A stretch of 64,000 nucleotides of DNA, from NCBI GenBank assembly GCA_000004985.1, contig GG738862.1, one strand, 5' to 3'. Shown here in pieces: positions 3,639-54,575 of the stretch (its first letter is position 1; every line of letters starts with the position of its first letter). The DNA comes from Naegleria gruberi (lineage: Eukaryota). Under the pieces are notes generated by a model. That model was not told where the DNA came from. It was given only the letters and a program-made list of their open reading frames with translations, and ran no database searches. The translations under genes and the position numbers were made by a program.

Positions 3639-5145
3639 ATGTTGCATAAGCGAGTTAAGGATATTAGAAGTGAAGTTGGAGATACTTGTTTTCTTCCTTC
3701 TATTGGGCCATCTTCACCTGAAAATAACTCCTACCTCAAATCATCATCATCATCCTCTTCAGTTGTTGCACCAACATCATCATCCTATCATCACTCTGGT
3801 GCAATGAAATATCAATCCTATGAAATGATGAAGAATATCTTCTCAGTATTCGACAGAGATAATGATGGTTTTATTAGGTATGTTTCAATGTACTATTCAA
3901 TTTTATTAACACAAGCCTTATCATCTCCATGATCATCACTATTAAATCCTTGAAAAACATTTGAACATGTAAAACAGACATGCGGAATTAAGACTCTTTC
4001 TCAATGACCTTGGATACCATGTAACTATTGATGATGTCGACCAAATCATACGGAGTGCTGGCTCAAAAGGTTGCATTACCTTTGATGAATTCCTTGACTT
4101 GATGATGGTCGAACAAGAAGATGAACAAGAGGAACAAGAGGAAGCATTCTATTTTCCAGCCTCTAATAATCCATTCGAAGACCCATTCACAGTGGAGACT
4201 TCACCCACCAAAGTAATATCACCATCAAGAATTTCACCAACCAAACCTACCTCTCCTTCCACAACACAATTTCAAAGAACTCCACCTCGTAATATTCCAC
4301 CTCCTTCCTCACCCTCCTCCAGACACTCACCATCAAGTTATAATTCAAATACACTTTCTCCACCAAGCTTTTCACCTTCATCAAGAAGTGGTAATACCAC
4401 ACCTTCCTCTCCTAATCATCAACTTGCTCCAATTTCACCTCAATCTAATGCCTCTACAAGAAGTAGAGCAACTTCACTTTCACCTGCTTATGGTGCCTCT
4501 CCACCTAAAGTTAATTTTACTAAACGTGTGCTTAGTAAGAATAACTTGAAAGAAACAAAGGATGGATTTAGTTTGTTTGATGCTTTAAGGAAACGTATTC
4601 CAATTTTTAAACCATTCCAGGACTCACCAACACAAAATCTTAATACAAATACCACCTATATAAGACCTGTTGAGAATTTGAAATTGCCATCTCTTGATGC
4701 AAGGTCAAGAAGAAATAGTTCTCCTGTGGTTCCAGTCATTTTACAAAATCAACCAAGTAGTGGTGGATTTGTTGGTGTACCAAATTCTCCAAATACAAAT
4801 AATACTAGAAAAGTAAGAAAGGGTTATAGTCAAAATGCTGTTCAACATCTTCAAATGTCCACTTCTCTTTCATCTGGTATGGATTATATTCAAGAGAATA
4901 GTAAATCTACTCCAACTGATTATGGTACTGCTCACACAAGAGAAGAATTAAAGGATGCATTCTCTTTATTTGATACAAATGATGATGGAAAGGTTAGCAA
5001 GGCAGAAATGAGAAATGTAATGAAAAAGATTGGTCTATCAATGATCATGTCTGATGCTGAGCTTGATCAATTATTTGGCATGGTTGATAAAGATGGCGAA
5101 GGAAATATTGACTTTGATCAATTTGTGCAACTCTTCTTAATGTAA
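3639..5145 (+). CDS. EF-hand protein with N- and C-terminal EF-hand pairs and a long S/P/T-rich low-complexity centre. join(3639..3877,3978..5145) with a 100-nt intron GTATGT...ACAG.
   Basis: ORFs 3597..3932 and 4099..5145 join in frame across intron 3878..3977 (phase 2). EF loops: DRDNDGFIR|HAELRLF, GSKGCITFDEF, DTNDDGKVSKAEM, DKDGEGNIDFDQF. Confidence 0.6.
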
Positions 5146-9485: not shown

Positions 9486-12400
9486 ATGGAAACAAACGAT
9501 ACAACCCAAGAGGAAGTAGAATATATTGATGAGGCACAATTAAAAAAGAAAAGGAAATCATTAAAGCCCAAAACAAAATCAAGACCAACAAGTGAAGAAT
9601 ATGTTGAATACAAACGTTCCCTTACGGATAGACATTCATCACCAAATGTACATTACTATCCGCCACCACCTCACATGCAATACTATCCGCCACCTCCTCA
9701 ACATGTCTCTTATGGTGGTTATCCACCTCACTACTCAAATCCACCACCAGTCAATTATCAATATAACAATGCAGTACCTCAACCAGCATCAACATATTCA
9801 TCAGATGGTGACTACAGCTACGATCAAAACAATGGAAAATTTTATTTCAAACCAAGAAGAGAAACCTTGAATTGGAGAGTTTTACTTTCTTTAAACTTGG
9901 AGAAAATTATGGATAAAGTTGATATTGACACTTTGGAAAGTATTACAAAGAATTTAACCTTTGCGAGAGTTGACTTTAATGATTTACGATATTTCAATGA
10001 AACGAATTTTGTTCAAGTATTCAGACTATCTCAATTAATAATTGAGTATTTGCTGTACGTTCAGAACTATTTATCGGTGAAGAAGTAAGTATTTAATAGA
10101 CAGAATCACCTAACAATACAAAGAAAAGAAGTAGAGTCAAATGTAAAAACAATTATAGGTGACTCGGAAGAATATAAATCTAATCTGGCCAAAAAAACAG
10201 AGGAGATTAACTATTTGAAAAAAGAGCTAAAGAGAAAAAAGAAAGCATTATATGCTTATGAATGCGTATTTGGTGCTAATCCTGAAAAGGCAAAAATATT
10301 ATTAATGTCACAAAACCAACCACAACCTCAACCTCAGCAAGTTGTTGTGACATCAAGCTCAAGATCTGATAAAGAAGAAACATTTGGAGAATTGAGAGGT
10401 GAAATTAGAAGGCTTCAAGAAAATCTTTTTTCTCAACTTGAAGATACCATAGAGAAGAAACAAAAATTATTGGAAAAAGAAAATCAAAAGAGATTAGATC
10501 AATTCCAGAAAGAATTTGAAAAATTCACGGACAGCTGTAAATATCAACAGGATAATCTCTATTCAGCATTGAGTAAATCAATATCTAAGTACTCAGAAGA
10601 AGGTAGCAATGGATCAGGAAACTCTCCGGATGACTTTATGAAATTTTCTTCACATCTCCAAAACTTGATACAGCAAAATAACCAATTATTGATGAGCTCA
10701 TTTGACAGGAAGATGAATGATTTATCAGCTTCAGCCAAGCAAACAACTCAGGTAGATAACAGTGCCGAACTGAACGAAATGAGAAGGAAGTTAGATGATA
10801 TAATGAGAAATGTTAACAAAAAACCAGAGCCAATAGTTGAGACTGTTGTTCGAAAAGTTGTGAAGAAAGAACCTCCAAAAGAAGAAATTGTTACTGTAGT
10901 TAAGGCTAAGCCAAAAGAGCCTCCAAAACCTGAACCTAAACCAGAACCAAAAGTTGATCCTCCAAGACCAAAGACCCCTGTTGTTGTAAAACCAAAACCT
11001 GAACCAGAGCCAGTAGTAGAACGACCAAAAACTCCAGTGATGGCTAGACCTAAACCAGTGGAAAAACCAGTTCAACGAGTTGAAACTCCTCCAAGAGTTA
11101 AAACACCACCTCCACCTAAGCCACAAACACCAGAACAAGAAAGTTTTATTTCTGAAACAACAACTGATAGCTCAGATTACTCTTCAACAGACACAAGCAT
11201 GACTTCGGATAATTCAAATCTAGGATTACGAGAACGTATCTACAAAGAATTGAAATTAGGAAAGATTTTTGATGAGCTTGATGAATCAATTGCATATCAA
11301 CACTATGAAGATAAACCTTGGTTGAAAGCAAAGTACAAGCAAAATCCAAAATTTGTCAAAGTGCAAAACTCTGAAACAGACCAAGTATTTGATCACGAGA
11401 TGAGAACATTGGGGGTGGATCCTAGCCAATCAGGAATAACTGAGAATGAGTATTTGAGAGGTTTACAGGTACTCCAAAAATCCAGAGGAAATACTGTAAA
11501 TAACAACCCGGATCACCTGGTCATTATGAACGCATTAAGAGAACAAGTTGACAAGATTGCTTTGGATAGATTAAATGGTGATTCCCAGCAAGGTAATAGA
11601 GTTTCTTTCTCCCATGATCCTACACTCAACGATTTTATTAACAAATTACAAAAAATTAATGACTATGATGCTATTAGGAGAGTAAACCCAACAGAAAATC
11701 AACAAGAATCTCCAAGACGAAGAAAGAGCAATGCTGAATCACCGAGAAGAAGAATAAGTAATGCTGAATCGCCCAGACGAAAGTTTAGCAATGCAGACGA
11801 GGACCCAGCCAATGATATTCCAAAAGTTAAAATCCCTGAAAAACCAGAACCAAAGATGAAAGCTATTACAATTGCCCTTGAGGCTCAAGCTAAAAAAATG
11901 GAAATGGATGCAAAGAAAACCGTAAAGAATCCAGAAGACAATCAACCCCGAGTTGAAACTAAGAAACCATCAGAGCAAATGAATACTCTCAAATCAACAA
12001 TGAATGATACAAAACAATCAAACACATTACAATCCACTTTGAAGAGCGACAGAAGCTTGAATAACACCAAAATTATTGAGGCAGAATTTGATGATGTGAC
12101 TGCTGATGAGCATGATGAGGGATCTACTATGTATGAGGTTGTTGGTGCTCAGGGAGGAAACGGAGGAGGCGGAGGTGAAGAAAGTGAATATTCGACTGAG
12201 TATGAAACTGAAACCGAAGATATAGAACCTCCAAGACAAGTTGCTCAATCTGTTTCAAAGCCAACCAATCAAGTCGTAGAAGAGGAAGATAATGACCACG
12301 ATGATGATTATGAGGAAATAGAGGAGGAAGAAGAGGAAGTACCAAAACCTAGTAGTCAGAATCTCATTCAAACTTTCGTTGCTCCTGAGTCAGATGAAGA

Positions 12401-13137: not shown

Positions 13138-14181
13138 TTATTTAACCAAGTATAATCCTTCCAAGGCTGTACTTCCATCCTCATCAAATACCAAACGTGG
13201 TAGAATCACTTTATCTATTTTTCCAGATTGTAAATCCAAGTGATTTTGTAAATGTATTTTTTGATCAATTTTGCTTACTTCCAATTCTTGAGGAAGCTGA
13301 AAATCAAAATGCATTGGCTTGGCAACAAGTTTCATCGATAGAAAATGTTTAAAGAACTCCACTCTTTCTAAATTTGAGTTACACCAAAATTTTAACTTTT
13401 TTTCTGCAAGATAGGTCTCCATTTGTGGTTCATCATTCATTTGAAAGTTTTCAATCATTTTGGGAATGTACATGTATAGTATTTCATTCACTCTTGTTTC
13501 TGCTGTTGAGGATATTGACTTGACATAGTTAAAGACATTACTTTTGCTTGCTTCATTCATCATTGCAGAAAATTTCCTTTCTATAGCTCCAAAAATATCA
13601 ATGTGAAGATCTACAAGTGTATCCAGATCCAGATCCGTGTTATCTTCCAACCAAGCTGCAAGAGTTTGGCTTTTGTACCTCTCAAAGTATTTGATTACTT
13701 CTTGAGGAAGTGGAATTGGAGATGTCAAAAGTGCATCTCGTTCTCTCCTTTTCTTCAATGCCCTTTCCATTTGATTGGCATGTTCAGCAACCAGCTCATG
13801 AGCTTGATTGATTTTCCTCTTCAGCTCATTAATTGCCTGCAACTCCTGATCAACCTCTTCCTCCACTATTGGCTCTTCATTATGCTGCTCACCAGATTCA
13901 TCATGTTGTGGAAAAGTAGTATCATGATTGACAACCTCCACAGATTCAAGATTACTTTCCAAACTCTCGGCAACTTTAACTTGCTTTTCCGGTTGATCTC
14001 CTTCACCATCATCACAAGAATGAGTTACTTCATCCATACATGAGTCTTCGCTGGCTGTGGTTGGTTTCTCTTCATCATCATGATGGTTTAAAGTAACCTG
14101 TTCAATCATTTCTTGTGGGTTATTTTCAGACATTTTTTTAGTTGTTGTCTGTTTTGGACATGCCATCTTTCCATATCGCAC
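13138..14181 (-). CDS. Hypothetical protein (347 aa) with an acidic N-terminal half and a coiled-coil centre.
   Basis: Long ORF. The plus-strand ORF 13603..14043 is its antisense shadow. No family recognised. Confidence 0.5.
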   Translation of the reverse strand: MRYGKMACPKQTTTKKMSENNPQEMIEQVTLNHHDDEEKPTTASEDSCMDEVTHSCDDGEGDQPEKQVKVAESLESNLESVEVVNHDTTFPQHDESGEQHNEEPIVEEEVDQELQAINELKRKINQAHELVAEHANQMERALKKRRERDALLTSPIPLPQEVIKYFERYKSQTLAAWLEDNTDLDLDTLVDLHIDIFGAIERKFSAMMNEASKSNVFNYVKSISSTAETRVNEILYMYIPKMIENFQMNDEPQMETYLAEKKLKFWCNSNLERVEFFKHFLSMKLVAKPMHFDFQLPQELEVSKIDQKIHLQNHLDLQSGKIDKVILPRLVFDEDGSTALEGLYLVK

Positions 14182-14247: not shown

Positions 14248-15979
14248 ATGTCTTCATCTAATACACCAACACATGTTGCTGCCATTGATTTTGGTACCAG
14301 CAACACCGCAGTTGCCTACGCAAAAACACCAACAACTTCAAACTCTCATTTTGACATTGTACTATTCCAGTTAGATAAGAACAAGCCCAAAACCAAAACT
14401 ATTGTTGCTTTAGATGTAATGAAACCTAAAGGACAACAATGTGTTGCCTTTGGTGATCAAGTTAAGAAGAAATTCGAGGATGAAGAATCCTTCCATTCAG
14501 ATGTATTAGTGTTCGAACATTTTAAAATGCTTCTTCATAACAACTCAAGTGGAAATGAGAGAGATGATGTATGCATTGCTCATAACGGTAAAACAAAACC
14601 ACTCACTCAAGTGATTGGAGAAACATTGAAATATCTAGTAGATCGGACTGTGGAAGAAATTTCCAGTAAAAGCATCAAAACAGTACAAAAGAAAGATATT
14701 ATGTGGGTTTTAACTGTACCAGCAATCTGGACATGGAAAGCTAAGAGTATAATGAGGAATGCCATGAGAGAATATGGCCAAATAGAAGAAAAATTTATCA
14801 TTGAAGCACTTGAACCTGAATGTGCTTCAATTACTTTGTGGCAAGAAAATCCTGAAATTGCCAATCAAAGTAAAACTGCAATGATTGTGGATATTGGGGG
14901 AGGAACAGTTGACATTAGTGTACATAAATTGAATACAAAAGAAAAAAGATTAGAGAGTAAATTAGAAGCAAGAGGAGGAGCTTGGGGTGGACGAAACATT
15001 GACCGATCTCTATTCGAATTTATGCAAGAAGTTTTGAAGTTTGATTTTACTTCATATAAATTTAAAGAAAATGGTGACTATTTCGATTTAACAGCAAATA
15101 TAGAAGACTTGAAAGTTTGTTTTGCTAAAGACTTTGATCCAAGAGACTACAAAGACAAGAATGGTAATCTTTCACTCAATCATGACCAAATCAAATATTC
15201 TATTGTAAAAAGAATTGAAGAATACAAGGAAAGAACCAAAACCAAACAAGTTGATTCTCTTCAGAGAAAGTATGGAATCAAAATTTCATTTCAAATACTT
15301 TTCAGCTTTTATATGAAAATTTTACAAAATATTACTTCTACTATCAATGAAATCATAACACAATTATCAAAGAATAATATAGCAATTGACTATATTTATC
15401 TAGCTGGAGGTATGGCAGAGGCAAAAGTAGTTGTCGATGAAATTAAGAATTCTAGTAAGAATAAGCAAGTAGCAGTTGTTACAAATCCTCAGACTGCAAT
15501 TGTAAGAGGTGCTGTCTATTATGGACTCAATCAAAATATTATCAAAACAAGAGTTTCTACATTTACTTACGGGTTATCTGTGAATGCACCATTCAATCCT
15601 GCTATTCATGATACATCGAGAAAAATTATTAATTTTAATAAGGAAGTTATGTGCAAAGATTGCTTTTTAGAAATAGTTAAAATAGGTGAGGAAATTGACA
15701 CGAATCAAATCAAATCATTAAGTGCTCCTCCAACAACAGTTGATCAAACTGTAATTAATTTTAATATTTTACAAACAAAGAAAAGTAATCCTAAATATGC
15801 AGATGAAAAAGATGTTGAAATATTAGCCTCAATTAGTATTGATATTTCGGATTGTTTGCATTTACCAATTGAAAAGAGGACTGTCACTGTTAACTTTATG
15901 TTTGGAGCTACAATTATTTATGTGAATGCAATTAATGAAGCTACTGGAAAACAAGAGAATGTCTATATTTCATTTGATT
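14248..15979 (+). CDS. Atypical Hsp70-family ATPase (HSPA12-like nucleotide-binding domain). It probably continues past the GTAAGT donor at 15980 into the next feature.
   Basis: AAIDFGTSNTAVAYA (phosphate-1), IVDIGGGTVDISVH (phosphate-2) and LAGGMAE (adenosine motif). The second ATG (14248, aaaaaATG) is the preferred start. Confidence 0.7.
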
Positions 15980-16026
15980 GTAAGTTAATCTCTTTCTTAG
16001 AATTTAATAGAAGAAATCTTCACTAG

Positions 16027-17455
16027 ACACTTCCAATAATAATAACACTTCAAAGAGATCTTTAGAAGAGGAATGTACTTCCTCTAAAAAGACCAAATCT
16101 AATCCCACATCAACTGATCCCTTAACTTCCATACTTCAGAAAAAAGAAGGAAACAGTCTCTTTAGTGATATTCTGCAAAGAAATTCAAAGAGTCAGCACG
16201 TTGCTCCAATATTAGTGAAAGACAATGAAAGTGAAAAATTTGAAGATGAAGTTAAAACGTATGATACTGTTTATAATGGTATTATTAGAGATTATAAACC
16301 AAAGGATTTCTTTAGGGCCCTCTTTAGAATTAAGGATATTCCACAAAAATACCTATCAAGTTATTCTGAATTAGCAAAATATTTGACTGAACCTTTCACA
16401 AATGTGGAAGACAAAGCAAAAGTTATCTATGCATGGATCACCCATAATATTGCCTATGATGTTTATTCAGCAAGAACCAATTCATATCACAATGATCCAA
16501 TCAAAACATTTAAAGAAAGAAAGGGTGTATGTGGAGGATATGCTGCCTTATTTCAAGCAATGATGTTTCAATGTGATGTTCCTTCAACAGTTAAAATTAA
16601 TGGTAGATCTAAATCAGTAGATGGAAATGTAGGATCTCATGCATGGAGTGCTGTTCAATTAGAAAATGGTCAATACTTTCTATTAGATTGTACTTGGGGA
16701 GCTGGATTTACTTCATCAGGTATATTCGAAAGACATTTTAATCCAAACTACTTCTTTGTCAATCCAAAAACTCTAATATCTACTCACTTACCTGACAATG
16801 ATAAATGGCAATTTTTAGAAAAAACAGTAACTCCAGATGAGTATTATGAACTACCTGTAATTACTCAACATGGTATTAATAATGGATTGACTATTATTTC
16901 AAACAAGAAAAAGAGTATTCTTTTACAAGATACAAACAGAGGAATTTTGGTTCTTCAAGCCAATCCAAACTTGAATTGGGATGCTGATTTAAAAGATTTG
17001 AGTGGAAATTCAATTGCAGACAAAACTTTTGTCTGTATGAATCCAGTACTGCCAATATTCATTACATTATTCCACAAGCTGATAAGGCCTACCGTCTATA
17101 TCTGTATTTGGATAAGATGTGCGTCACATCATATGAGATTAAAACAAGGAAGGTAACGATTAATGATGTCTTTGTTACTAAATATAAGGGAATGGAAGAT
17201 GCACGAGTTGGAATTCTCCATCCATTACAAAAGAGATTAGATTCTGATAAGGAATGGACATTTGTGTTAAAAAATCCTCAAGGAAGAGATTTATATTTTA
17301 GTTATGATGGGCAGTACATTCCACTTGTAAAAGTGGGAGAATTTCAAGTAATGAAAACAAGAATTCCACCAAATGCCAAACAAATCAGTATTTGTTTTAT
17401 GGAAGGAGAATATTGGGTAACCATCTGTCGTTATGATGTTCAATTAGTAATATAG
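16027..17455 (+). CDS. Transglutaminase-like cysteine-protease-fold domain protein (KY/transglutaminase-like superfamily), join(16027..17034,17079..17455). It has no start codon of its own and is probably the downstream exons of the Hsp70-like gene.
   Basis: Cys-His-Asp signature GVCGGYAALF ... HAWSAV ... LLDCTWG. The frame is open from 16011 with no ATG for ~110 codons. A 44-nt intron (17035..17078, GTATGA...ACAAG) joins ORFs 16215..17156 and 17108..17455. Confidence 0.6.
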
Positions 17456-17518: not shown

Positions 17519-19003
17519 TTACTTCATTCCATATCTTTTGGAAATGAACTCAAGCATTGCTGTGGATGTTGGTCTGGCAAGATGGTCAAAAACGAGTAGC
17601 TTTTTGATGATTGTGGTCATGAAATGATTTGAATAACCTCTAAATGTGTTATTCAAATATTGATTGAGCAGCTCATGAGATGGTATATAACCCAAACAAA
17701 TAAAGCCATTTGTAACACAAACATCTGTTGCATCTGTAAAGGTTGCAAGAGGGTCAATATCCCATATTTGACACATTATGTTGAAAAATGTAACTCCCAA
17801 GCTCCATATATCTAGTTTAGTAGATTTGTGATTCTTTTTCAATGTTTCTGGAGGTAAATAGAGCTTTGTACCAAATAAACTTGAAATACTTCCACTGGCA
17901 GAGTCATCTACCAATTCAAAATCTGACAAACAAACATAGACATCTGGTTTGTAATAGCTTACCAGAATATTTGCCTCTTTGATATCGTTATGAGATAGCT
18001 CAATATCATGTATGGATTTTAAGCCTTTCAAGTTTTGTACCACAATTTGTCCCAATAGAGCATCACGTTGATTGGAATCAGATTTGAGAATGGGAATGAA
18101 ACCAAGTAATGACATTTGTAGAAGTGGGCTAATCATTTCCACCTTGTAATGATCTTCAATATATCTATAGTCATACTTTTCAATACGAAGAACGTGAGAT
18201 GGTTGTGGAATGGTTTGCAGTTTTTTCTTTTTTGAATTCCAGATAATTGTAGAACATTCAATAATAATACTTACAATTTTGTACTCAAGATCCTCAATTG
18301 TTGGGAGTTGTCTATATTGTTTCAAAGCCTTTCTTTCCTTAAAGAACTTGTGCTCTATTTCATATACGATCCCATTTGTACCACTTCCAATGAATTTGAT
18401 TACCTTGTAGAATTGCTTAATTTCATCTGGAAGGTCAATAAATAGTTCTGTTTCTTTGATTGGTTTAATGGGTTGCTCCTCAATCTTCAAGTTGGAAGAG
18501 TAAAATTCAAATATAATTGAATCACCAATCTCAGTAAGTTGTTCTTCATTAAAATCAAGAGTTCCAATATTATCAAAGGTACGGTATTGAAAATGACCAA
18601 AAACACTATACATCTCTAAAAATACCTTTGATGCTGAATTCTCATCCAGTTTACGATGAATCTTGATACAATCTAATAGAGTTTCAAAATAATCTTCAAG
18701 AAAGAGAATGTGTGCACTGTGATGTTTAAGTTGCCTTACTCTTTCCTCATTACATAAATTAGCTAGTACATGAATTATTGAATTCAGTTTTTTCTCAATA
18801 GAAACTCTGTTTTGTTCCAATGTTGTCTTGTGATTAAGCAATGTGTAAAGACCGAAACGATTAACCTTGGTCTGTCCAATTATGAACCATAGAGAGAGCT
18901 TTTTATCAGCAATGATTTGATCTCTGGTTTTAAGTAATGAACTGTATGATCGATACAACATGTTGAATTGCTCTAGTGAATAGGTAATAACATATTCAAT
19001 CAA
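17519..19003 (-). CDS. Divergent protein kinase with a C-terminal kinase domain (possibly low-activity or pseudokinase: HND for HRD, DFE for DFG).
   Basis: IGSGTNGIVYEI (Gly-loop), ALK (beta3 Lys), SHNDIKEANILV (catalytic loop), SDFELV (DFG-like), LPPE, DIWSLGVTF. Confidence 0.7.
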   Translation of the reverse strand: MIEYVITYSLEQFNMLYRSYSSLLKTRDQIIADKKLSLWFIIGQTKVNRFGLYTLLNHKTTLEQNRVSIEKKLNSIIHVLANLCNEERVRQLKHHSAHILFLEDYFETLLDCIKIHRKLDENSASKVFLEMYSVFGHFQYRTFDNIGTLDFNEEQLTEIGDSIIFEFYSSNLKIEEQPIKPIKETELFIDLPDEIKQFYKVIKFIGSGTNGIVYEIEHKFFKERKALKQYRQLPTIEDLEYKIVSIIIECSTIIWNSKKKKLQTIPQPSHVLRIEKYDYRYIEDHYKVEMISPLLQMSLLGFIPILKSDSNQRDALLGQIVVQNLKGLKSIHDIELSHNDIKEANILVSYYKPDVYVCLSDFELVDDSASGSISSLFGTKLYLPPETLKKNHKSTKLDIWSLGVTFFNIMCQIWDIDPLATFTDATDVCVTNGFICLGYIPSHELLNQYLNNTFRGYSNHFMTTIIKKLLVFDHLARPTSTAMLEFISKRYGMK

Positions 19004-27335: not shown

Positions 27336-28610
27336 TTATTTCTTTAATTCATATTGATTGTCATAGTAATAAATTTCCTGTCTTGGATAATTAGAAGTTG
27401 GTTTTTCCACTTGAATTCTAACATGTCTTAAAAGATAGACTAAATATCCTATTATTGAAACAACTACAAATGTTAAATATTTTCTCTTATTTGGTAAGGC
27501 TGGAACAAGTTGATGTGTTGTTGATCTTTTAGTATTTAAATTTTGAATTGGTGTAATATTATTAACCATAGAAGAAGAATCATGTGATTTTGATGATAAA
27601 TTATTTTGATATTGAATGAAATATTGATTTGATTCATAAATGAATTCATCATGTATAGTACTTAACCATCTCTTCAAATTTGGATATCTATTAAAAATTT
27701 TAGTTACTAAATTATTTTCTAATGAATCGTTTGAATTAGATTTTACAATAGAAATAGATGTATGATAAATTGTACTCAAATATCCATATACAATTGTATC
27801 TAATGTGGAAGGATTATGTCCATAAAAATACTTGTTATCACTTCCTAATAACATATTTAAAGAATCCAAACATTCAATAAATAATTTAACACTAATTTTT
27901 TCGTCATGAGTTATTAAACCTAAATGATTCATTGTTTCTTCATCTAAATTTTTAAAAGTTTTACTTGATATTAAATTTTTATAAAGTTGAACATGTTTGT
28001 TTCTATCAGAATAAGTATGAATCCATCTAGAAATAACAGACATGTTACTAAAATATAAACTTTTTGTATAGGATTTGAAAATATCATCTCTATTCCAAAA
28101 GTAATGTAAATAAAAAGGTAAACATTTTTCATGTACAATATTAATAAAAGCTTCAATTTCTGTTTGAATTTGTTGTAAACTTGTTGAAGTATTTTCATTC
28201 AATGTCAAATTTGAATCTAAATTTTCTCCTTTACTTTTTAAGTAATTTAAAATTTCATTCATTCCATAAATTACAACGTTATTTTCACTATAAGAATGAA
28301 CAAGTATTGGAAAATGAATATCGTTAGATGAAATATGATTAGCATAAATAGATGATAATATACATGATGGTTCCATAATCTTAATTTTATATTTAATATT
28401 AGAAAATACCAAATAGGCATTAATTATTGTTGAATAAATATCAATATTAAACAAATGTTCGTTATCACTTGTTTTATTATTTAATAAATCCGAATAACTA
28501 ATATATAATGTAATAGAATTTTCTTCTCTATCCGATGATGATGAATCGGCTACCATTTGATGATGCGAATAGGAGGAGGAAGAACCACCATGTTGTTGAT
28601 GATAAAACAT
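27336..28610 (-). CDS. Metaxin-like (GST-fold) mitochondrial outer-membrane protein with a C-terminal TM anchor.
   Basis: EKCLPFYLHYFWNRDDIFKSYTKSLYF matches metaxin KLLPVLVHTFWID...YVEVTRKWY. KYFYGHNPSTLDTIVYGYLSTI matches QKFFFGDAPASLDAFVFSYLALL. C-terminal TM LTFVVVSIIGYLVYLL. Confidence 0.5.
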   Translation of the reverse strand: MFYHQQHGGSSSSYSHHQMVADSSSSDREENSITLYISYSDLLNNKTSDNEHLFNIDIYSTIINAYLVFSNIKYKIKIMEPSCILSSIYANHISSNDIHFPILVHSYSENNVVIYGMNEILNYLKSKGENLDSNLTLNENTSTSLQQIQTEIEAFINIVHEKCLPFYLHYFWNRDDIFKSYTKSLYFSNMSVISRWIHTYSDRNKHVQLYKNLISSKTFKNLDEETMNHLGLITHDEKISVKLFIECLDSLNMLLGSDNKYFYGHNPSTLDTIVYGYLSTIYHTSISIVKSNSNDSLENNLVTKIFNRYPNLKRWLSTIHDEFIYESNQYFIQYQNNLSSKSHDSSSMVNNITPIQNLNTKRSTTHQLVPALPNKRKYLTFVVVSIIGYLVYLLRHVRIQVEKPTSNYPRQEIYYYDNQYELKK

Positions 28611-28734
28611 TTTTTTTAAAAAGGCTTTTCACCACTAAAATCAAAGCCTTGTTTTTAGCATGCTTCTCTTTGGAAAGCCTTTATTCAATCAATTTATGAA
28701 GGCTGTTTGGTTGTTGAGGTTTGAAATTGAAAAA

Positions 28735-29734
28735 ATGCCACCATCGGATTCTGCAGTTTTTAAATTTAATTTCATGGTTAATGATAATGATAGTGATGAT
28801 GATGATGACGAGAATAATTCATCGGAAGAGAGTAAATTTGCTCCAACCATTGAAAAGAATGAAGAAATGAAGGATAATGTAGAATTGGAACCATTTAAAA
28901 TCATTAATTACAAAGATTTAAATACAAGAAAACAATATAATGAACATGTTCATACTTGGAAACATTTAAAATTTATTAATGTTACATCAATTATTTCAAA
29001 TCATGTTTCTCAACAATTAAATACAGATTTAGTTAAATATAAGTATGAAGGTGGATTTAAATTATGGGAATGTTCGGAAGATTTAGTTGAATTTATGACA
29101 AGTAATTTGAATTTTGTTGAAGAAAATGTAAAGAATAAGAATATATTAGAATTAGGATGTGGTCATTCTTTACCTTCTATTCATTGTTTATTATATTGTA
29201 ATGCAAATATTTGTGCTTTTCAAGATTATGTATGTTTTTTAATATTATTCCATATTGTAATATTAATATTAATAATATTAATAGAATCATGATGTTATTG
29301 AAAATTTAACAATACCTAATATTATAGTAAATTTGAATGATGAAAAACTTTTAGATAAAACAATGGAAAGATGTGAATTTTATTCTGGTGATTGGGGTTT
29401 CATGTCTGAACAACAATTGAACAAATTTGATTTAATTTTAATGAGTGATACTATTTATCATGTTGATTCCTATGATAGATTATATAGAGCTATTAAATCA
29501 TCTTTAAAGAAGGGTGGAAAAGTGTATGTTTTTTATTGTAATATTAATAATTTATTGTAATGATATAGATTGTGTGGAGCTAAATCATATTATTTTGGAT
29601 GTGGTGGAAGTACTAAACAATTTAAGGAATTTATTCAACAAAAAGAAGGTTCCAATGTAAAGATTGAAACTGTTAAGGATATTATGGATGGAACTTCAAA
29701 TGTTCGTGAAATTTTACTTTTTACTTTCAATTAA
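28735..29734 (+). CDS. METTL18: METTL18/Hpm1-type protein-histidine N-methyltransferase, join(28735..29229,29285..29523,29569..29734).
   Basis: SAVFKFNF start block (human MTFQFNF), YEGGFKLWECSEDLVEFM, ILELGCGHSLP (SAM motif I), AFQDY|NHDVIENLTIPNIIVN across a 55-nt GTATGT..ATAG intron, and C-terminal SYYFGCGGSTKQFKEFIQ across a 45-nt intron. Confidence 0.65.
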
Positions 29735-29855
29735 AAGAAAATACATTTCAATTATTTAGTATCTGTTTTTGCTGCAAGTAGATTATTCCTTTCGCATACT
29801 TTCTCATACTGGCATTGAACTCTGATAGTCACGAACTTATGATTGAATATAAGAA

Positions 29856-29926
29856 GCGTCGATGGTTTAGTGGTAGAATACGGCGTTGCCATCGCCGTGA
29901 CCCGGGTTCAATTCCCGGTCGACGCA
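29856..29926 (+). tRNA. tRNA-Gly(GCC): tRNA-Gly (anticodon GCC), 71 nt.
   Basis: GCGTCGA acceptor stem pairs with TCGACGC. D-loop AGTGGTAGAAT, anticodon loop TTGCCAT, B-box GGTTCAATTCC, discriminator A. A T5 run follows. Confidence 0.9.
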
Positions 29927-29937
29927 TTCAGAATTAA

Positions 29938-29942
29938 TTTTT
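29938..29942 (+). terminator. Pol III oligo-T terminator for the tRNA-Gly.
   Basis: TTTTT run 12 nt downstream of the tRNA 3' end. Confidence 0.5.
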
Positions 29943-30129
29943 ACTTTTATCTCTCACAATAAATTATTAAAATTTTTATTTTAAAAACTATACATTCACA
30001 TCTACCAGAAACTCAATTTTTACATCTTCAATCGTTATATTCATTGAATAAATCATCAAAGTTTTGACCCCATTTTTTAATAAATATTAAAAAAAATAAA
30101 ATTCTAATTTTAAAAATAAAAAAATAAAA

Positions 30130-31398
30130 ATGATATCATCCAAACAACAAGCAATTTCATCATCTATTAATGAACAACAACAGCAATTTGTCGATCATTT
30201 AGCATCATTAGATTATGATCCGAGCAGAGAAATACATTCATCTATTAGTTCTCACAATAACAAACAAGATAATGAATATCATGATGATCAAACATTGTTA
30301 TCTGATCTTCCACCGGAAATAATTTCATCAATATTTAGTTTTATTCCATTATTTTCATCAACAACAATGACATCCAATCTAGATTTGATGGATAATTGGC
30401 AAAATGAAGAAAAACAAAATTCAACCATTTCATCAATTTTATCAAGTTGTAAATTATTTAAATTATTAATAGAACAAGAATGGAATAATAAATTGGATAG
30501 AAATGTATATATTCAAACAAAAAAGGAAAATTATGAATTTTCACAATTAAAAATACAATTACAATATTATGAAAAATATTATGGAAGTTTATTTGATAAA
30601 AAATCTAGAATGGTACCAATAATGAGAATTATAATTATTTTATTATGTTTATTTGGTTTTTATGATTTTAATTTTTCAATTCAATTTATGTATATTCCCT
30701 TTTTTATACATATAATACCATTTACTGTATATTCCTTAATTGGGTATTGGAAATATAAAAGAAGATTTACAACATTTCCATTAAGATTAAGTTTAAATCA
30801 TTTAGCTAGTTCACAGATTATGTATTTATCTTTAATCAGTTTTACAATTTCATATGTTACATTATTCTATGGTGGAGTTTATTATAAATTGAATTATTTA
30901 AATAATACAAATATAGAAAATACTATTCATGGAAATTATATTTATTTTAAATATGAAATATATGTTGGATTAATAATTAGTATTTTAATTGGAATTTCTT
31001 TATTAGATGTTTGTTTAATTGCTATTAGAAAATATTCCAAAACTAGACATTTTTTATTACTATTAATAGTTATATTACCATTGTTATTATTTTATTCATG
31101 TATTATAATTGGTAAATTTATTACATTTTCATATATTATACTTTCTATTTTTTGTATAACAGCAACTATTGCATTAATATATTTAGAAAGTCAAAAAAAG
31201 GAAAAATTATTATCATTATTTTGTATTTTATCATTTTTATGTATTTTAATTTATTTAATTTTCAATTCATTACCATATTTTGAATATGTTATTATTATAT
31301 CACAATTATTATTTAAATTCTATGTTGGTTATTATGGAAAAAATAATGAATTTGAATGTTACTGTGAAAATTGTAAATATAAAGTTGTACATTTATAG
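30130..31398 (+). CDS. F-box-like N-terminus followed by a multipass transmembrane protein (422 aa).
   Basis: LLSDLPPEIISSIFSFIP (F-box-like) followed by at least 6 hydrophobic helices. Very AT-rich coding sequence. Confidence 0.5.
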   Translation: MISSKQQAISSSINEQQQQFVDHLASLDYDPSREIHSSISSHNNKQDNEYHDDQTLLSDLPPEIISSIFSFIPLFSSTTMTSNLDLMDNWQNEEKQNSTISSILSSCKLFKLLIEQEWNNKLDRNVYIQTKKENYEFSQLKIQLQYYEKYYGSLFDKKSRMVPIMRIIIILLCLFGFYDFNFSIQFMYIPFFIHIIPFTVYSLIGYWKYKRRFTTFPLRLSLNHLASSQIMYLSLISFTISYVTLFYGGVYYKLNYLNNTNIENTIHGNYIYFKYEIYVGLIISILIGISLLDVCLIAIRKYSKTRHFLLLLIVILPLLLFYSCIIIGKFITFSYIILSIFCITATIALIYLESQKKEKLLSLFCILSFLCILIYLIFNSLPYFEYVIIISQLLFKFYVGYYGKNNEFECYCENCKYKVVHL

Positions 31399-31679
31399 AA
31401 TTTTATTAAAATATATATATGGAAAGTTCACCGATTTGTTTTTTTCAAAATGTTGGAAACTCTAACACAACAAATAAATTCCTGCGAGGTCCTAACAAAA
31501 GTGATTGTACGAAACTTTAAATGCAATCGAAAAATCCATTCAGCAACCTAAATTTGAAACGTTACAGACATTCTTAAAATTGTAACTCGCTAGAAACGGT
31601 TATGCATGAGTTTGATGTAAATCACTCATTTCAAATATTTGAGAAACTAAGAATTGAGATAAGAATGAAATATATTGAA

Positions 31680-32555
31680 TTAAAATTTGTAGTACTCTTT
31701 CACTAATTGTGTAACAATATTTTGGAGCTCATTGTAAAAACCAACAAAGAAATGATCAGATCCATCCATAGGAATTAGTTCATGAGAAAATTTAGAACCA
31801 AGATTCTTTTCCTTAACTTGATTTTTGAAAAATTCGTGGAATTGTTGAGAATCTGAGAATGGAATCATTGAATCTCTATCACCATGTATTGAGTAGACAC
31901 GCAATGGATAATTTTCTTGTAATTGAATCTTGGTATCGACCTTCCCACGTTCTTCAAGAGCTTGCTTTGTAACATAAAGCTCTTTAATAATATCAGTTGA
32001 GCAAACAGTTACTGAGCCACCAATGGTGAAAGTTTTCCATAAGAAACGACCACTCTTTGCCAATTCTTCTCTTTCACTTTCAGTGAATCTATTAATTGGA
32101 GTATTACTCATATCAAATCTTCCACATAAATTCACAACAATTCCATTTTGTACATATTGGGGATACTTGTTTGAGTATAAGAGAACAACATTTCCTCCTT
32201 TCGAATGTCCACAAAGTGAAATTTGCTCATATTTCAAAGTATCTTTGAGATACATGACAATGGAGTGAAGATCTTCAACTTCTTTATAATAATTTGAATA
32301 GGAAAATTCACCTTCACTTTCTCCATTACCTGAAAAATCAAATCTAAATGTATCAAAATGTTCATCAAATAATTTAGGGAATATTAAATAGTTTTTATGG
32401 CAAGCCAAACCATGACAAAGAATTAGAATTGGTTTTTTGGTAGTACTAGCTGATGATGATTCATTGGCACCTTGTCGGAGTATTCCGAGCATGGTCTCAT
32501 TACTAGAGTTTTTAACGTGATGAATGGATTCGTGGAAGGTTTGAGTTGTGGCCAT
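31680..32555 (-). CDS. Alpha/beta-hydrolase-fold protein (serine hydrolase, ABHD-like). The start is most likely the second Met (MATTQT).
   Basis: LCHGLACHKN (HG motif), FDFSGNGESEG and LCGHSKGG (GxSxG nucleophile elbow). Confidence 0.65.
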   Translation of the reverse strand: MATTQTFHESIHHVKNSSNETMLGILRQGANESSSASTTKKPILILCHGLACHKNYLIFPKLFDEHFDTFRFDFSGNGESEGEFSYSNYYKEVEDLHSIVMYLKDTLKYEQISLCGHSKGGNVVLLYSNKYPQYVQNGIVVNLCGRFDMSNTPINRFTESEREELAKSGRFLWKTFTIGGSVTVCSTDIIKELYVTKQALEERGKVDTKIQLQENYPLRVYSIHGDRDSMIPFSDSQQFHEFFKNQVKEKNLGSKFSHELIPMDGSDHFFVGFYNELQNIVTQLVKEYYKF

Positions 32556-41000: not shown

Positions 41001-42391
41001 AATTCCACCATCTGCGAATGCTGGTTTTACATTTAAATAACATAAAATGTCCTCTTCCTCTTGAAGTTCTTCCAACTCCAAAATCTTTTCCAACATTTGA
41101 GAAATACTGTAATCCAGAGAGGGCATTATTTCTGTCAGAGTCTTCTCACCACAATTTGTAGGATCATATTTTGTTAACTCCATAATTTTAGTAGCTGTAG
41201 TGTTAATTTGTTCAGCTTCTGTTTGTTTTGAAGCCTCTGAAAGTTTTCTCTTTCTTGCCTCCAAAATGTGCTTCTGTTTATCCCTTAGAGACACGGGATC
41301 ATCTTTTACTTTCACTTTTTTATCTACTGCAGAAGGTTTTTCCTGTTTTCCTCTGTCCTTATGAATTCGTGGACCATTCGATCCAACATCTCCCAAATCC
41401 CTGTCCATAACCATCTTAACCTCTTCACTTAAGAAGGGATTTCTAGAAAGTGTTGTGGCAGGTGTCATATTATAGGACAAGATCTTATCCAAAAATTTGG
41501 TTTGGTTTGTTTCCTCGAATGATTTGAAAACCCTCTTTTCAGAAGCAGTTGGAACTTTAGTTAATACAGAGCTTGGGTTCTGAGGTTTCTCATCATCATT
41601 GGTAGAGTACAATCCAGAGAGAAAACCATATTGAAAGTCTTCTTTCTTTCCAGGCATACTTTTTTGTCGGGGAGTGATATTTCCAGGAGGTCCACTTCTC
41701 GGTTTCAAATGTTGGTTGTTCAAGAGCTTTTTGTCAAAATTCTTATCTTCCATAAGAATGTCTCTAATTTTTGATGGATCAAATCTACATATTTGAATTA
41801 GTAATTGAATGTCTATCACACATACTTTGAAAAAGAGCATCGAGCAATATTTTGAATTCTAATCTTGTTTGTTTCCTCATCAAATACTCCTTTTTTCATC
41901 ATTGTTTTATATTTTCGACTCATATCATCAACAATTTTTTCCTTATGCATTTCAATTGCTCTCTTAATTGCTTTATCTCGATTATTTGCTGCTACAAGCG
42001 GATTATATGATCCAATATTACTAGTAAATTGTATTCCAATTTCCGCCTTCATTAAATTATCAAATTCCTTCATATCAATATCGGTCTTTCTTGTCGGAAG
42101 ACCAGCACCAACAATATCCGTAACTTTTGTTGAAGTAACACTTAAGGCATTATAAAAAGCATCAACATCCTCATATTCCTTATCAACTCTCCATCCTTCA
42201 TTCTTGTTAGGTATTTCAAAAGTAATTGAATATCCCTCTCCATCCAAATTTACAGTTTCCTTAGTCTCTTGTTTTTCATCCTCATCCGATAACCCCAATC
42301 TAGAAGTAAGGGCTTTATAATTCAAACTCGTATTGACCCTCTTCAAAGAAATTGGATTAACCAGCGATGTGGATGAGGCATATCCACTCAT
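38040..42391 (-). CDS. Large hypothetical S/T/K/E-rich protein (~1450 aa), complement(join(38040..41784,41826..42391)) with a 41-nt intron.
   Basis: ORFs 41816..42391 and 38040..41840 join in frame across GTATGTGTG...ATATGTAG (41785..41825, phase 2). No family recognised. Confidence 0.55.
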
Positions 42392-42673: not shown

Positions 42674-43986
42674 ATGTATTATAGTAATAGCAACACAAGT
42701 GTTGCTTCTCCTTCCTCGAGTGATCAGAAAACAACAGCAATAATAGAGGAGAGTCAAGGCTCACGTTCGAATCTAGCTGTGGAGAATGGTACCTCTCCGA
42801 AACAAATATCACCTTCGGAAGAGAAGAATATCAAAATAATTTCAGCAAATAATTCGCAAGCCTTCATACAGAATAAGATTGCTGGGCATGCTATTGTGGA
42901 AGATTTGGAGTTGGGACTACATCATGACGAAGGGAAAACATCAAGATCGATATCAAATGCATCATCAATTAATTCAACATCTAAATTAATAGAAATGCAA
43001 GAAATGAAACATATTCCTTCAAAGTATATTGACTTTATAACTGCATTTGATTATTTTGTAAACAATGGAAAGGATGAATTGAATGAAATTAAGAAAAATA
43101 TCAAGTATTCACAAAAAGATGAATTATCAACAATTTCAGAAACTTACTGTTTTTGTCTTACAAAAAAGAAGAGAGTCCGTTTTGAAACTTTGGAAAATGA
43201 TCAATTGGAAGAGTTAAGGAACTATCTTGCACTCATGACTATTCCTTTCAAAAATTCAAATTCAGTACATGTCGACATTTGTATGGAGGTTTTTCATGCT
43301 GTGTTGGGCAAGGAAATCAATTTTGATAACTCAAAAGAGAATGAGGAAATTATAATTCACGACAAAAAAGAAAGTAAATCTCCAATCACAACGGAGTGGG
43401 AAACACTGGGATTTCTTGGGCCTAATCTTGAAGAAGAGTTCAGAGGTTTTGGAATATTTGGAGCCCTTATGCTACTCTATTTTTGCACCTATCATCAAGA
43501 GTTGAGTGAGAAGATTTACCAACTCTCCAAGGACGAGAAAAAACACTTTCCTTTTGTAATATCAGTTCTTCATCTTCTCAAAATAGGTAAGTTTCAAAAT
43601 TCCTACCAATTAGTTATATTCTCAAAATTACATTAGCAATGGATTTAGTAAAGAATAAGAGATTCAACAAGTATATCAATCAGAATCAAAGTGTAATATT
43701 TACTATTCAAGTGGTGCATGCAGATATATGCAGAGAATTTCTCAAACTGTGGACCAACAAGTCATATACAGAGTTGGACTTTCACCACGTTATTGAATCT
43801 TACACATTTGAAATTGTTAAGAAAGACTCTCTGGCCAAACAACTTCTCCTTCCCTCTTCAAAATCTAGAGAAAGGGCAGCCACCAAAGCAACCACAACAA
43901 CAACTCGCTCACCATCTCCTTCCTCACCCACCATTTCACACCAACAACCCTCAACCTCCCTCAAAAACAGAACTGTTTTCAAATAA
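42674..43986 (+). CDS. ELMO-domain protein (ELMOD-like, putative Arf/Arl GAP), join(42674..43586,43637..43986).
   Basis: ELMO signature WETLGFLGPNLEEEFRGFGIFGALMLLYF (W..GFQ...P..DFRG.G). A 50-nt GTAAGT..TTAG intron joins ORFs 42674..43636 and 43639..43986 in frame. Confidence 0.65.
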
Positions 43987-52428: not shown

Positions 52429-54575
52429 ATGCACAACAGTCGCGTTCTTAATATTGTTGTTTTAGGTTCTGAACACAGTGGAAAGTCCACGCTGATTGAT
52501 TCTATCGTGTTCGATCCAAATAGAGATGGAGAGGTATGTATCAATGTTGAAGAATAATGTTGGATGTTAATAATATGTAAAATTCATTTTGATTGGATTT
52601 ATTAATTAATTGGATAAATATTAATCATATTGACAAACAATAATAATGGATTTAATATTCATTGGAACGGAATATCAACAATATTGGAAAATATAGTTAC
52701 CAAGAGTTTTAGGACCAAAGGAATTTTCACTTCAATTGAAAAATCAAGACATTACTTTTAATTTCATTGACACCAATTCTGAAAAGACTATTCAACAGGC
52801 TTTTTCTACCATGCCAGTTTTGAGTGCAGACCTTTTTGTGTTTGTGATCGATAGTACCAATGAAGAAAGTGTCAAGAAATTCTATGAAGAATGGCTTCCA
52901 TATGTTGAGAAATCTAAAAAGATGCTTTATATAATTTTGACCAAGACCGATCTTAGAAACACAGAAGATCCAGAGTTATTTGATCCAACCCAAGCTGAAA
53001 AGTATGTCAGATATCAAGGATTGTTTAAATACAGTTCCAAGACAAGGGAAAATATTGAGATTTTACTTTTCAACTTGTCAAACATTTTCATATTTTCAGC
53101 AGATTTCCTTTATAATTTTATTGAGGAACGTTTAACGAGTCAATGTCATAAGGCTCTGAGAAGAATATTTTGGTTGATGGATGAGTTAAATTGTGGATTA
53201 GTTGATAATTCTACCATTAAGAATTTGATTGGCGCCACTGATGAGGATAGTGTTGTAATTGATGAAAATGGATCTATGGATTTGGATTCATTCTTGTCAT
53301 TTATGGTTTCATTAATTTTAACAAGACATGAACATCTTGTTTGGACCCTTATTCAAAAATTCAATTATAATGAAAAACTTGAACTCGATATTGATGACAT
53401 TATGTATGTATACTTGTTCGAAATTTTCAATTATTCTAACCATTTGAATAGTACTGACGTTTCTCCAGATATTTCACATGAAGATTTCATCACTCTTAGT
53501 GATGAAGGAAAGAAAGTTCTCACAAGTATTTTCAAGAGATTTGATAGGGATAATGACGGCCTTCTTGATGAAAATGATATTGATGAAGCATTTAGTCTTA
53601 CAACAGCATGTCCATTCCATGAAATGTCAACCAATTACTTTGATTCTTGTAGAACTGTGGAGGATAAGAAGATTGATATCCATTCTTGGATTTCACTTTG
53701 GCAATTAATTGTGACAACAAATTGTTACAGATATATTCATTGCTTATTTGAATGGGGATGCAATAATGTTGATGGAATGATTGAAGTTAAAAAGTAAGTT
53801 TATCAAATAATTCCCATACAAAACAATTTCAAATAGGAAGAGACTTTTTAGAAAGGCTCCAGAAGATTATCCAAACGTTCTCAATTGCTATATTTTCGGT
53901 GCTTCTAACTGTGGTAAAACTTCAGTTCTTAGACATTTCGTTGGAAAACCACCACTCAATACTCATTACTCTACAAAATCCACTCAATACTCGGTGGTTG
54001 ATAGAATTACGTATCAAAATAGGGAATATCATTTAATAGTTACAGAATTCGAAGATAAGGAAATTCCATTCGTGTTAAAATCAGAAGAATTAATGGGAAA
54101 GTGTGATGTTGCTCTCTTAGTTTTTGATGGTAGTGATAAATTTTCATTCAGTTTCCTTGAACATATTCAAAGAGGATTGGAAGTTACCATTCCATGTGTT
54201 TACATGTTGACTAAGAAAGATTTAGGACTTGTGGATCAAGAAAACTTGAGTGTTACTCCAGAACAATTTTGTGAAGCTCTCTCGCTTGTTTGGCCTCCAT
54301 ACCTATGCTCTTTGGTTACTGAGGATGGTCTTAAGAATATCAAGACACTCTTTTCAGATCTGTTAGAAGTTGCTTTGAATCCAAAGGAATCAGGATGTGT
54401 TCCAAACTGGAATATGAATAATGAAGAATCTGATGAAGAAGTAGAGTCTGATGATGAAGATTTCCCACCTAAGGAATCACTAATGAAGAGAACACTTAAA
54501 ATGGTTGGTGTTGTCTCAGTTTTTGGATTTGTTGCTTTTGCCATGATGAAATGGTTAAAGAGGGCTAAGGAATAA
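52429..54575 (+). CDS. MIRO: Mitochondrial Rho GTPase Miro (GemA-like), join(52429..52533,52697..53793,53837..54575).
   Basis: N-terminal GTPase P-loop VLGSEHSGKST, EF-hand FDRDNDGLLDENDIDEAF, second GTPase P-loop IFGASNCGKTSVL and C-terminal TM anchor VGVVSVFGFVAFAMMKWL. The introns are 163 nt (GTATGT..TAG) and 43 nt (GTAAGT..TAG). Confidence 0.75.

Follow-up and report, generated by a model that had tools for sequence, protein, structure and literature searches.

The 64-kb window analysed here, the whole stretch of 64,000 nucleotides taken from contig GG738862.1, comes from the heterolobosean Naegleria gruberi NEG-M, and not from the setting of Dictyostelia and other Amoebozoa in which the first-pass annotation had proposed to look for counterparts. 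Its guanine-cytosine (GC) content of about 0.32 fits the value of 33% published for the NEG-M genome, which has 1.7 exons per gene (PMC8296547). Positions 14248-17455 very probably represent one two-exon protein-coding gene, locus NAEGRDRAFT_66423, whose product would combine an Hsp70-like unit with a transglutaminase-like unit. The features assigned to this locus were the following:

14248..15979, plus strand: exon 1, HSPA12-type Hsp70-like unit, 577 codons and the first base of a split Tyr codon.
About 14248-15534, plus strand: predicted nucleotide-binding domain of exon 1.
14278..14307, plus strand: phosphate-1 motif AAIDFGTSNT, upstream of the public start codon, aligned to IDLGTTNS of DnaK (residues 6-15).
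About 15535-15979, plus strand: predicted lidless sandwich resembling the beta part of the Hsp70 substrate-binding domain (SBD-beta).
15980..16026, plus strand: candidate intron, phase 1, GTAAGT...CACTAG, 47 nt, with the same junction as the public gene model.
16027..16214, plus strand: linker at the start of exon 2, 188 nt, about 62-65 residues, rich in Ser, Thr, Asn and Lys, a spacer in prokaryote-style open reading frame (ORF) calling.
16368..16688, plus strand: transglutaminase-like (papain-fold) core, with the Pfam Transglut_core and DUF553 matches and the triad.
16896..17146, plus strand: first predicted Ig-like beta-sandwich, model strands E234-312, predicted local distance difference test (pLDDT) values of 81-93, interrupted by a frameshift.
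17041..17042, plus strand: site of a 4-nt deletion relative to a sister strain, from the alignment with contig L001.
17047..17153, plus strand: 'second intron' of the public model, GTACTG...GGAAG, 107 nt.
17210..17455, plus strand: second, C-terminal beta-sandwich, model strands E334-411, pLDDT about 90, with the stop codon TAG at 17453-17455.

The Hsp70-like ORF, for which ATG 14248 was taken as the start (14194 being the mechanical alternative), stops at TAG 16024-16026, and a GTAAGT donor is found upstream of this stop, at 15980. The segment 15980..16026 measures 47 nt, which is not a multiple of three, and ends in CACTAG, the TAG stop serving as acceptor. Exon 1 ends in phase 1 with the T at 15979, which together with AC at 16027-16028 gives TAC (Tyr), and the spliced junction reads ...ISFDY|TSNNNN in the downstream frame, which stays open from 16011 to TAA 17154-17156 and contains the motifs GVCGGYA, HAWSAV and DCTWG, with their Cys-His-Asp triad. 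All these elements had been noticed in the first-pass annotation and were recovered when the sequence was read again. Intron removal would drop the last 15 codons and the TAG of the Hsp70-like frame, joining 577 codons upstream to 375 downstream in phase, with read-through stopping after 15 codons. We infer splicing at 15979|16027, for which the predicted junction-spanning peptide is QENVYISFDYTSNNNNTSK.

The alternative of two independent adjacent genes supposes a fortuitous GTAAGT, a promoter and a start codon for the downstream gene within the 190-bp spacer, and a public model that is a prediction artefact. The distribution of start codons speaks against it. The ATG-free stretch of the downstream frame, already pointed out in the earlier reading, covers 183 codons instead of ~110, and the first in-frame ATG (16560) lies 10 codons past the codon of the catalytic Cys, therefore translation of the linker and the enzyme core would need the upstream exon. 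Both strands of the 64 kb together hold only 15 copies of GTAAGT, a count that gives a probability of about 0.7% for one falling by chance within 60 nt of any particular stop. As to the composition of the spacer, its GC content of 0.34 is coding-like, compared with 0.31-0.32 in the coding sequences of the window and 0.17-0.28 in most of the non-ORF gaps shorter than 320 bp, three of which have 0.32-0.35; the A/T homopolymer content, which had also been put forward, does not discriminate the spacer from the gaps.

In a scan of the window, candidate GT..YAG segments had to measure 30-300 nt, to connect two open frames with a minimum of 80 codons each, and to run into an early stop if read through. 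About eight loci were obtained, 15980-16026 among them, with lengths of 41-100 nt. The other seven candidate introns were:

29230-29284: methyltransferase gene, 55 nt, junction spanned by Methyltransf_16.
43587-43636: ELMO gene, 50 nt, junction spanned by ELMO_CED12.
53794-53836: Miro-like EF-hand/GTPase gene.
10055-10099: putative.
41764-41825, minus strand: putative.
3878-3977: putative.
4535-4620: putative.

The introns of the methyltransferase and ELMO genes were considered confirmed because one continuous Pfam match crosses each spliced junction. The donors of the seven candidates were GTAAGT, GTATGT, GTACGT or GTAAGA, and the acceptors TAG, CAG or AAG. The 47-nt intron agrees with this local class in its extended GT donor, YAG acceptor, length (the other seven candidates measure 43-100 nt) and restoration of the frame. 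Recoding, either by a programmed -1 ribosomal frameshift or by stop-codon read-through between 16011 and 16026, would also connect the two halves, and the two frames do overlap open for 16 nt; however, the overlap (AAGAAGAAATCTTCACTAG) holds no slippery heptamer, the frame entered by TAG read-through meets stops within 12 codons, and the phase follows exactly from a perfect GTAAGT...YAG intron like the local ones. Recoding at this site is thus barely credible. Ciliate-style explanations (tiny introns of 15-21 nt or stop-codon reassignment), first considered because the sequence is compact and AT-rich, were dropped on the identity of the organism, and read-through meets more stops.

When the conceptual fusion was used as query, one near-identical protein was retrieved, the hypothetical NAEGRDRAFT_66423 (P0001), which appears in UniProt as 'Transglutaminase-like domain-containing protein' with 960 amino acids (aa) and the Pfam families PF00012, PF01841 and PF04473. 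Its 15979|16027 junction is identical to that of the proposed gene, and it contains ...NVYISFDYTSNNNNTSK...; the gene structure is already known, this junction having been public since the release of the N. gruberi genome. Unlike the proposed gene, the public model starts at Met 14419 (MKPKGQQ) and so is without 57 N-terminal residues, and it excises 17047-17153, reading CMNP|VTINDVF. A start at 14419 deletes the phosphate-1 motif AAIDFGTSNT, which every HSPA12 relative conserves and in which D14 and G16 do not vary across the HSPA12 alignment, and this supports ATG 14248 as the better candidate start. With at least two errors the public model is not authoritative, a circumstance that favors the two-gene alternative. 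An exact-sequence look-up of the public protein matched no record, the locus tag was not mentioned in the literature and supplement searches, and the homology search matches for the fusion or the downstream half included no protein fragments from transcript assemblies.

A search with the downstream half led to P0121, a protein of 414 aa and 98% identity encoded on L001, a 2,245-nt contig of genomic DNA that belongs to an unrelated metagenome assembly in ENA and is about 99% identical to the window. The 47-nt intron is retained in L001 with GTAAGT and CACTAG unchanged, and substitutions are found at 2 of the 47 positions, both in the interior, one of them abolishing the alternative acceptor AATAG at 16010. 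Splice sites conserved between strains around an interior that changes are not what two separate genes would predict. The spacer (16027-16214) differs by five substitutions, four of which are synonymous third-position changes in the spliced frame, as compared with 0/5 and 1/5 synonymous in the other two frames; under neutrality, four or more synonymous changes out of five have P = 0.009, a value based on small numbers. Exon 2 as a whole shows 9 synonymous and 4 non-synonymous differences (dN/dS about 0.11, P = 0.0002). Because four of the five substitutions are synonymous in that frame, the spacer is, by its pattern of change, translated in the spliced frame in both strains, and a spacer that evolves as coding in exactly the frame set by the splice further opposes the two-gene alternative.

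Aside from the gene itself, L001 carries at 1923-2159 a 237-bp element bounded by perfect terminal inverted repeats of 23 nt (TTGTTACGGTCAAACCTCGGACA), located in a convergent protein-kinase gene, where it replaces ~140 nt encoding kinase subdomains VIII-IX (window ~17722-17860, minus strand). The element looks like the insertion of a miniature inverted-repeat transposable element with an associated deletion, and its terminal repeat is absent from the window.

The comparison with L001 also revised the 3' end of the gene, for which a span to 17455 and a protein of ~1040 aa had been given, figures that presuppose one continuous frame. L001 has four extra bases (AGAT) after 17041 (TGTATGAA-AGAT-TCCAG), and its ORF (P0121) is continuous. 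The 4-nt deletion shifts the frame from 0 to 2, and frame 0 then stops at TAA 17154-17156, so that the window as written gives 953 aa with a scrambled, out-of-frame tail of 37 residues, whereas the intact product in its sister-strain form has 1054 aa. The second beta-sandwich, conserved to the C-terminus in the relative P0136, is reached only with the frameshift repaired. A GT-AG intron accounting for the frame change at 17041 was rejected, as there is no GT..AG pair near 17031-17047 in the required length class, and L001 shows an indel.

The 'second intron' of the public model has a donor (GTACTG) and an acceptor (GAAG) that are poor by local standards. The segment 17047-17153 is 100% identical in L001, the 36 residues excised with it align with the homologues P0136, P0137, P0122 and P0140, and in the model of the sister-strain protein they form three high-confidence beta-strands (E281-312). 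In view of the alignments and the model, this 'intron' most likely served the annotation to get around the frameshift. We give appreciable, although lesser, weight to the reading that the deletion is real in NEG-M, which would leave a truncated protein without part of the first and all of the second Ig-like domain, or no protein. A sequencing slip is unlikely, since neither a homopolymer nor a simple repeat is found at the deletion, the frame is kept by the sister strain and all homologues, and the affected residues are placed by the model in core beta-strands. However, the region is otherwise identical or synonymous between the strains, which would make any inactivation very recent, and the deletion could reflect an assembly error or a single allele in a strain that is heterozygous or polyploid. 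The catalytic core is intact and upstream of the shift, and a truncation would concern the 3' end only, being compatible with the fusion.

The Hsp70-like assignment of the first ORF held, with a match to Pfam HSP70 above the gathering score (E = 1.1e-9). Residues 12-266 of exon 1 align with residues 6-247 of DnaK, and the phosphate-1, phosphate-2 and adenosine motifs of the ATPase are present as AAIDFGTSNT, VDIGGGTVDIS and LAGGMAE. All the invariant columns (26/26) of an alignment of 95 HSPA12 sequences are kept by the exon 1 protein, whose full length is 26-33% identical to HSPA12A/B-type proteins of bivalves, sponges, cnidarians and fish; the top matches of the fusion search included no other heterolobosean HSPA12 members. 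The AlphaFold model of exon 1 reached a pLDDT of 89.3 and a predicted template modelling score (pTM) of 0.90, with the beta-strands of residues 432-574 above 90. Foldseek aligned it over about 600 columns, SBD-beta included, with DnaK, BiP and Hsc70, the best fit being to full-length entries docked in the ATP state (TMq 0.60), with lower values for lid-deleted constructs (0.44-0.49). No C-terminal alpha-helical lid (SBD-alpha) was present in the model, in which the last beta-strand ends exon 1 and the low-complexity linker follows. Because exon 1 ends on this strand without a helical lid or an EEVD tail, the predicted unit is HSPA12-like, and not a canonical Hsp70 of the DnaK/Hsc70 type. The family consensus terminates in ...FDFLxx, and exon 1 ends within a few residues of that point.

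The transglutaminase-like assignment of exon 2 was likewise borne out by Pfam Transglut_core (E = 8e-14, above the gathering score) and accompanied by a DUF553 match (E = 2e-10). The triad is encoded at 16530-16532 (Cys), 16638-16640 (His) and 16686-16688 (Asp); C106, H142 and D158 do not vary in alignment A6, and the triad is nearly invariant among 150 relatives. The relatives of exon 2 include a KY protein of amphioxus (Branchiostoma; 38% identity over the core), a Cyk3-like SH3 protein and the N. gruberi paralogue NAEGRDRAFT_57719, and the low-complexity N-termini of stand-alone relatives can be aligned with the linker. In the model built for the intact protein of the sister strain (pLDDT 87.6), the core, with pLDDT above 90, is followed by two beta-sandwiches in the place where homologues have Pfam Ig-like_KY; this Pfam family stays below threshold on the Naegleria protein and was found in 30/39 and 7/10 relatives. 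This evidence supports placing the exon 2 half in the KY-like family, with a predicted catalytic activity. We know of no enzymatic activity shown for the KY-like family.

The architecture had been described as unusual, and the searches agreed with that description. None of 119 HSPA12 relatives carried a transglutaminase-like domain (phmmer and profile cross-searches), and none of 162 transglutaminase-like relatives carried an Hsp70-like domain, the latter set including the top 150 of 8,548 matches obtained when P0121 was searched exhaustively with HMMER against 1.84 billion representatives. Neither the word-index search with the whole fusion nor the search with the transglutaminase half yielded a fused orthologue, and no second copy of either half was found in the 64-kb window. 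Pfam assigned TPR, HEAT, SH3, CAP, RING, IQ and, once, DnaJ domains to 49 relatives with long extensions. The closest relatives (P0136, P0137 and P0122 from Willaertia) are stand-alone proteins that start from an ATG of their own and have an N-terminus of low complexity, and no Hsp70-like gene was found beside P0136 (locus L002). Among the transglutaminase-like relatives, P0139 from Willaertia magna (618 aa) is fused to TPR repeats; TPR, like the DnaJ domain found in P0264, is a module typical of Hsp70 co-chaperones.

Several observations weigh against a single gene coding for a working fusion. The homologues of each half are all separate proteins elsewhere, so co-occurrence gives the fusion no support and the two-gene alternative gains by it, as it does from the normal HSPA12 length of the unspliced Hsp70-like ORF. 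If the intron were retained, the product would be a stand-alone HSPA12-like protein of normal length, ending 15 residues past the C-terminus of the family, and use of the AG acceptors at 16000, 16010 or 16013 would in each case form TAA from T and AA right after ...ISFD, making a non-fused product possible. The reference allele is frameshifted in its C-terminal part, and any biochemical mechanism can be drawn only from the identity of the domains. The first-pass annotation had stated that the proposal would fall if the two domains were always on separate genes in orthologues. Taken to the letter, separate domains are what was found; however, the relatives are 30-38% identical, belong to other genera and are not orthologues. 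In our reading of the sequence data, separate domains in other genera do not outweigh the evidence from within the species, and two independent genes at 14248-17455 are very improbable.

A facultative intron would be a further way to account for these data, with retention or an upstream AG giving mainly the stand-alone HSPA12-like protein and the fusion being a minor or condition-specific isoform. The short length (47 nt) and AT-richness of the intron would suit it. Nevertheless, purifying selection on the linker and exon 2 indicates that translation of the fused frame is frequent enough to maintain it, the sister strain no longer has the AG at 16010, and introns of 21-34 nt would undercut every local intron. 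We therefore regard a predominantly unfused product as unlikely. The one-gene reading, with an intron removed at 15979|16027, is supported by six independent lines of evidence: the public model, the sister strain, the start codons, the local intron class, the end of exon 1 and the rarity of the architecture.

Beyond the gene, its divergent neighbor at 13138-14134 (minus strand) has an acidic product of ~330 aa to which Pfam assigned no domain, the two start codons being about 110 bp apart. A GC-poor region was observed at 28001-32000 (0.23-0.26, versus ~0.32-0.35 elsewhere in the window).

The arrangement has the appearance of a fusion specific to this lineage. The likeliest history would be a recent one, with loss of the start from the downstream gene and removal by splicing of what had been the tail and stop of the upstream gene. 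Both modules retain their catalytic residues, and a disordered, low-complexity segment of ~65 residues joins them. A nucleotide-controlled client capture by the Hsp70-like module, with presentation to the tethered cysteine enzyme and docking through the Ig-like domains, is offered as a tentative mechanism. The ATP-regulated lidless ATPase with its beta-sandwich clamp would bind extended client segments and hand them to the flexibly tethered papain-fold enzyme for cleavage, deamidation or cross-linking, and the Ig-like domains would anchor the protein to a structural target. Should the protein prove real and active, it would provide a natural case of a papain-fold enzyme tethered to a chaperone-type ATPase, and a small hint on the role of KY-type proteins.

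The present analysis gives evolutionary support to a fusion that formerly rested on gene prediction alone, and records a pairing of Hsp70-like and KY-like units found in no other retrieved protein. It also corrects two errors of the public model, namely a truncated N-terminus, with loss of an essential ATPase motif, and a false second intron, which masked the frameshift and deleted three beta-strands.

Among known systems, HSPA12A and HSPA12B match exon 1 in fold, length and C-terminal end point (...FD, on the last beta-strand). The family is expanded in bivalves, sponges and cnidarians, and its members are often fused to signalling or effector modules (CARD, caspase and HEPN_DZIP3 among them), which is itself a hint, not a test, of a broader connection of Hsp70 with KY-type enzymes; the Naegleria protein differs from all 119 relatives retrieved in carrying a transglutaminase-like domain. 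With the KY and Cyk3-type proteins the Naegleria protein shares the Transglut_core triad followed by the YFF..P..H.P..WQ segment and predicted Ig-like domains. The difference lies in the N-terminal partner, which is an Hsp70-like ATPase in Naegleria and a low-complexity, TPR, SH3, HEAT or DnaJ region in the KY-like relatives. One of the latter, P0264 (770 aa, from a JGI metagenome), has the order DnaJ, transglutaminase and Ig-like_KY, by which a KY-like module would be coupled to the Hsp70 system through a J-domain. P0264 would recruit Hsp70 in trans, in contrast to the covalent fusion of Naegleria, and is a single example among the 49 long relatives.

The best solved structural match of exon 2 was FAP246 of the Chlamydomonas C1b arm (PDB 7SQC and 7N6G; TMq 0.73 and 0.69), with a profile match of E = 6e-21 and an identity of only 12-14%. 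The Hsp70-like half has its structural match in the HSP70A chains of these two entries, although HSP70A is a canonical lidded Hsp70 and not of HSPA12 type. HSP70A and FAP246, a KY-like protein, are both components of the central-pair C1b arm of the cilium, organised by CPC1 (PMC9113940; bioRxiv 10.1101/2021.06.16.448709), and in vertebrate muscle the loss of KY perturbs or induces the Hsc70/BAG3 pathway of chaperone-assisted autophagy (PMC6078408). Because of the Naegleria fusion, P0264, the FAP246/HSP70A arm and the Hsc70/BAG3 response to KY loss, which are otherwise unconnected hints and none of them a test, the fusion might be read by analogy as a 'Rosetta stone' for a general partnership in which an Hsp70-type chaperone delivers clients to a KY-type enzyme, a generalization that we consider doubtful. 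If it were true, the function of the human myopathy gene KY, so far unexplained, would become approachable as an Hsp70-coupled activity. In Chlamydomonas the two proteins are separate polypeptides of one C1b arm, whereas in Naegleria, as known here from sequence, the corresponding halves would be fused.

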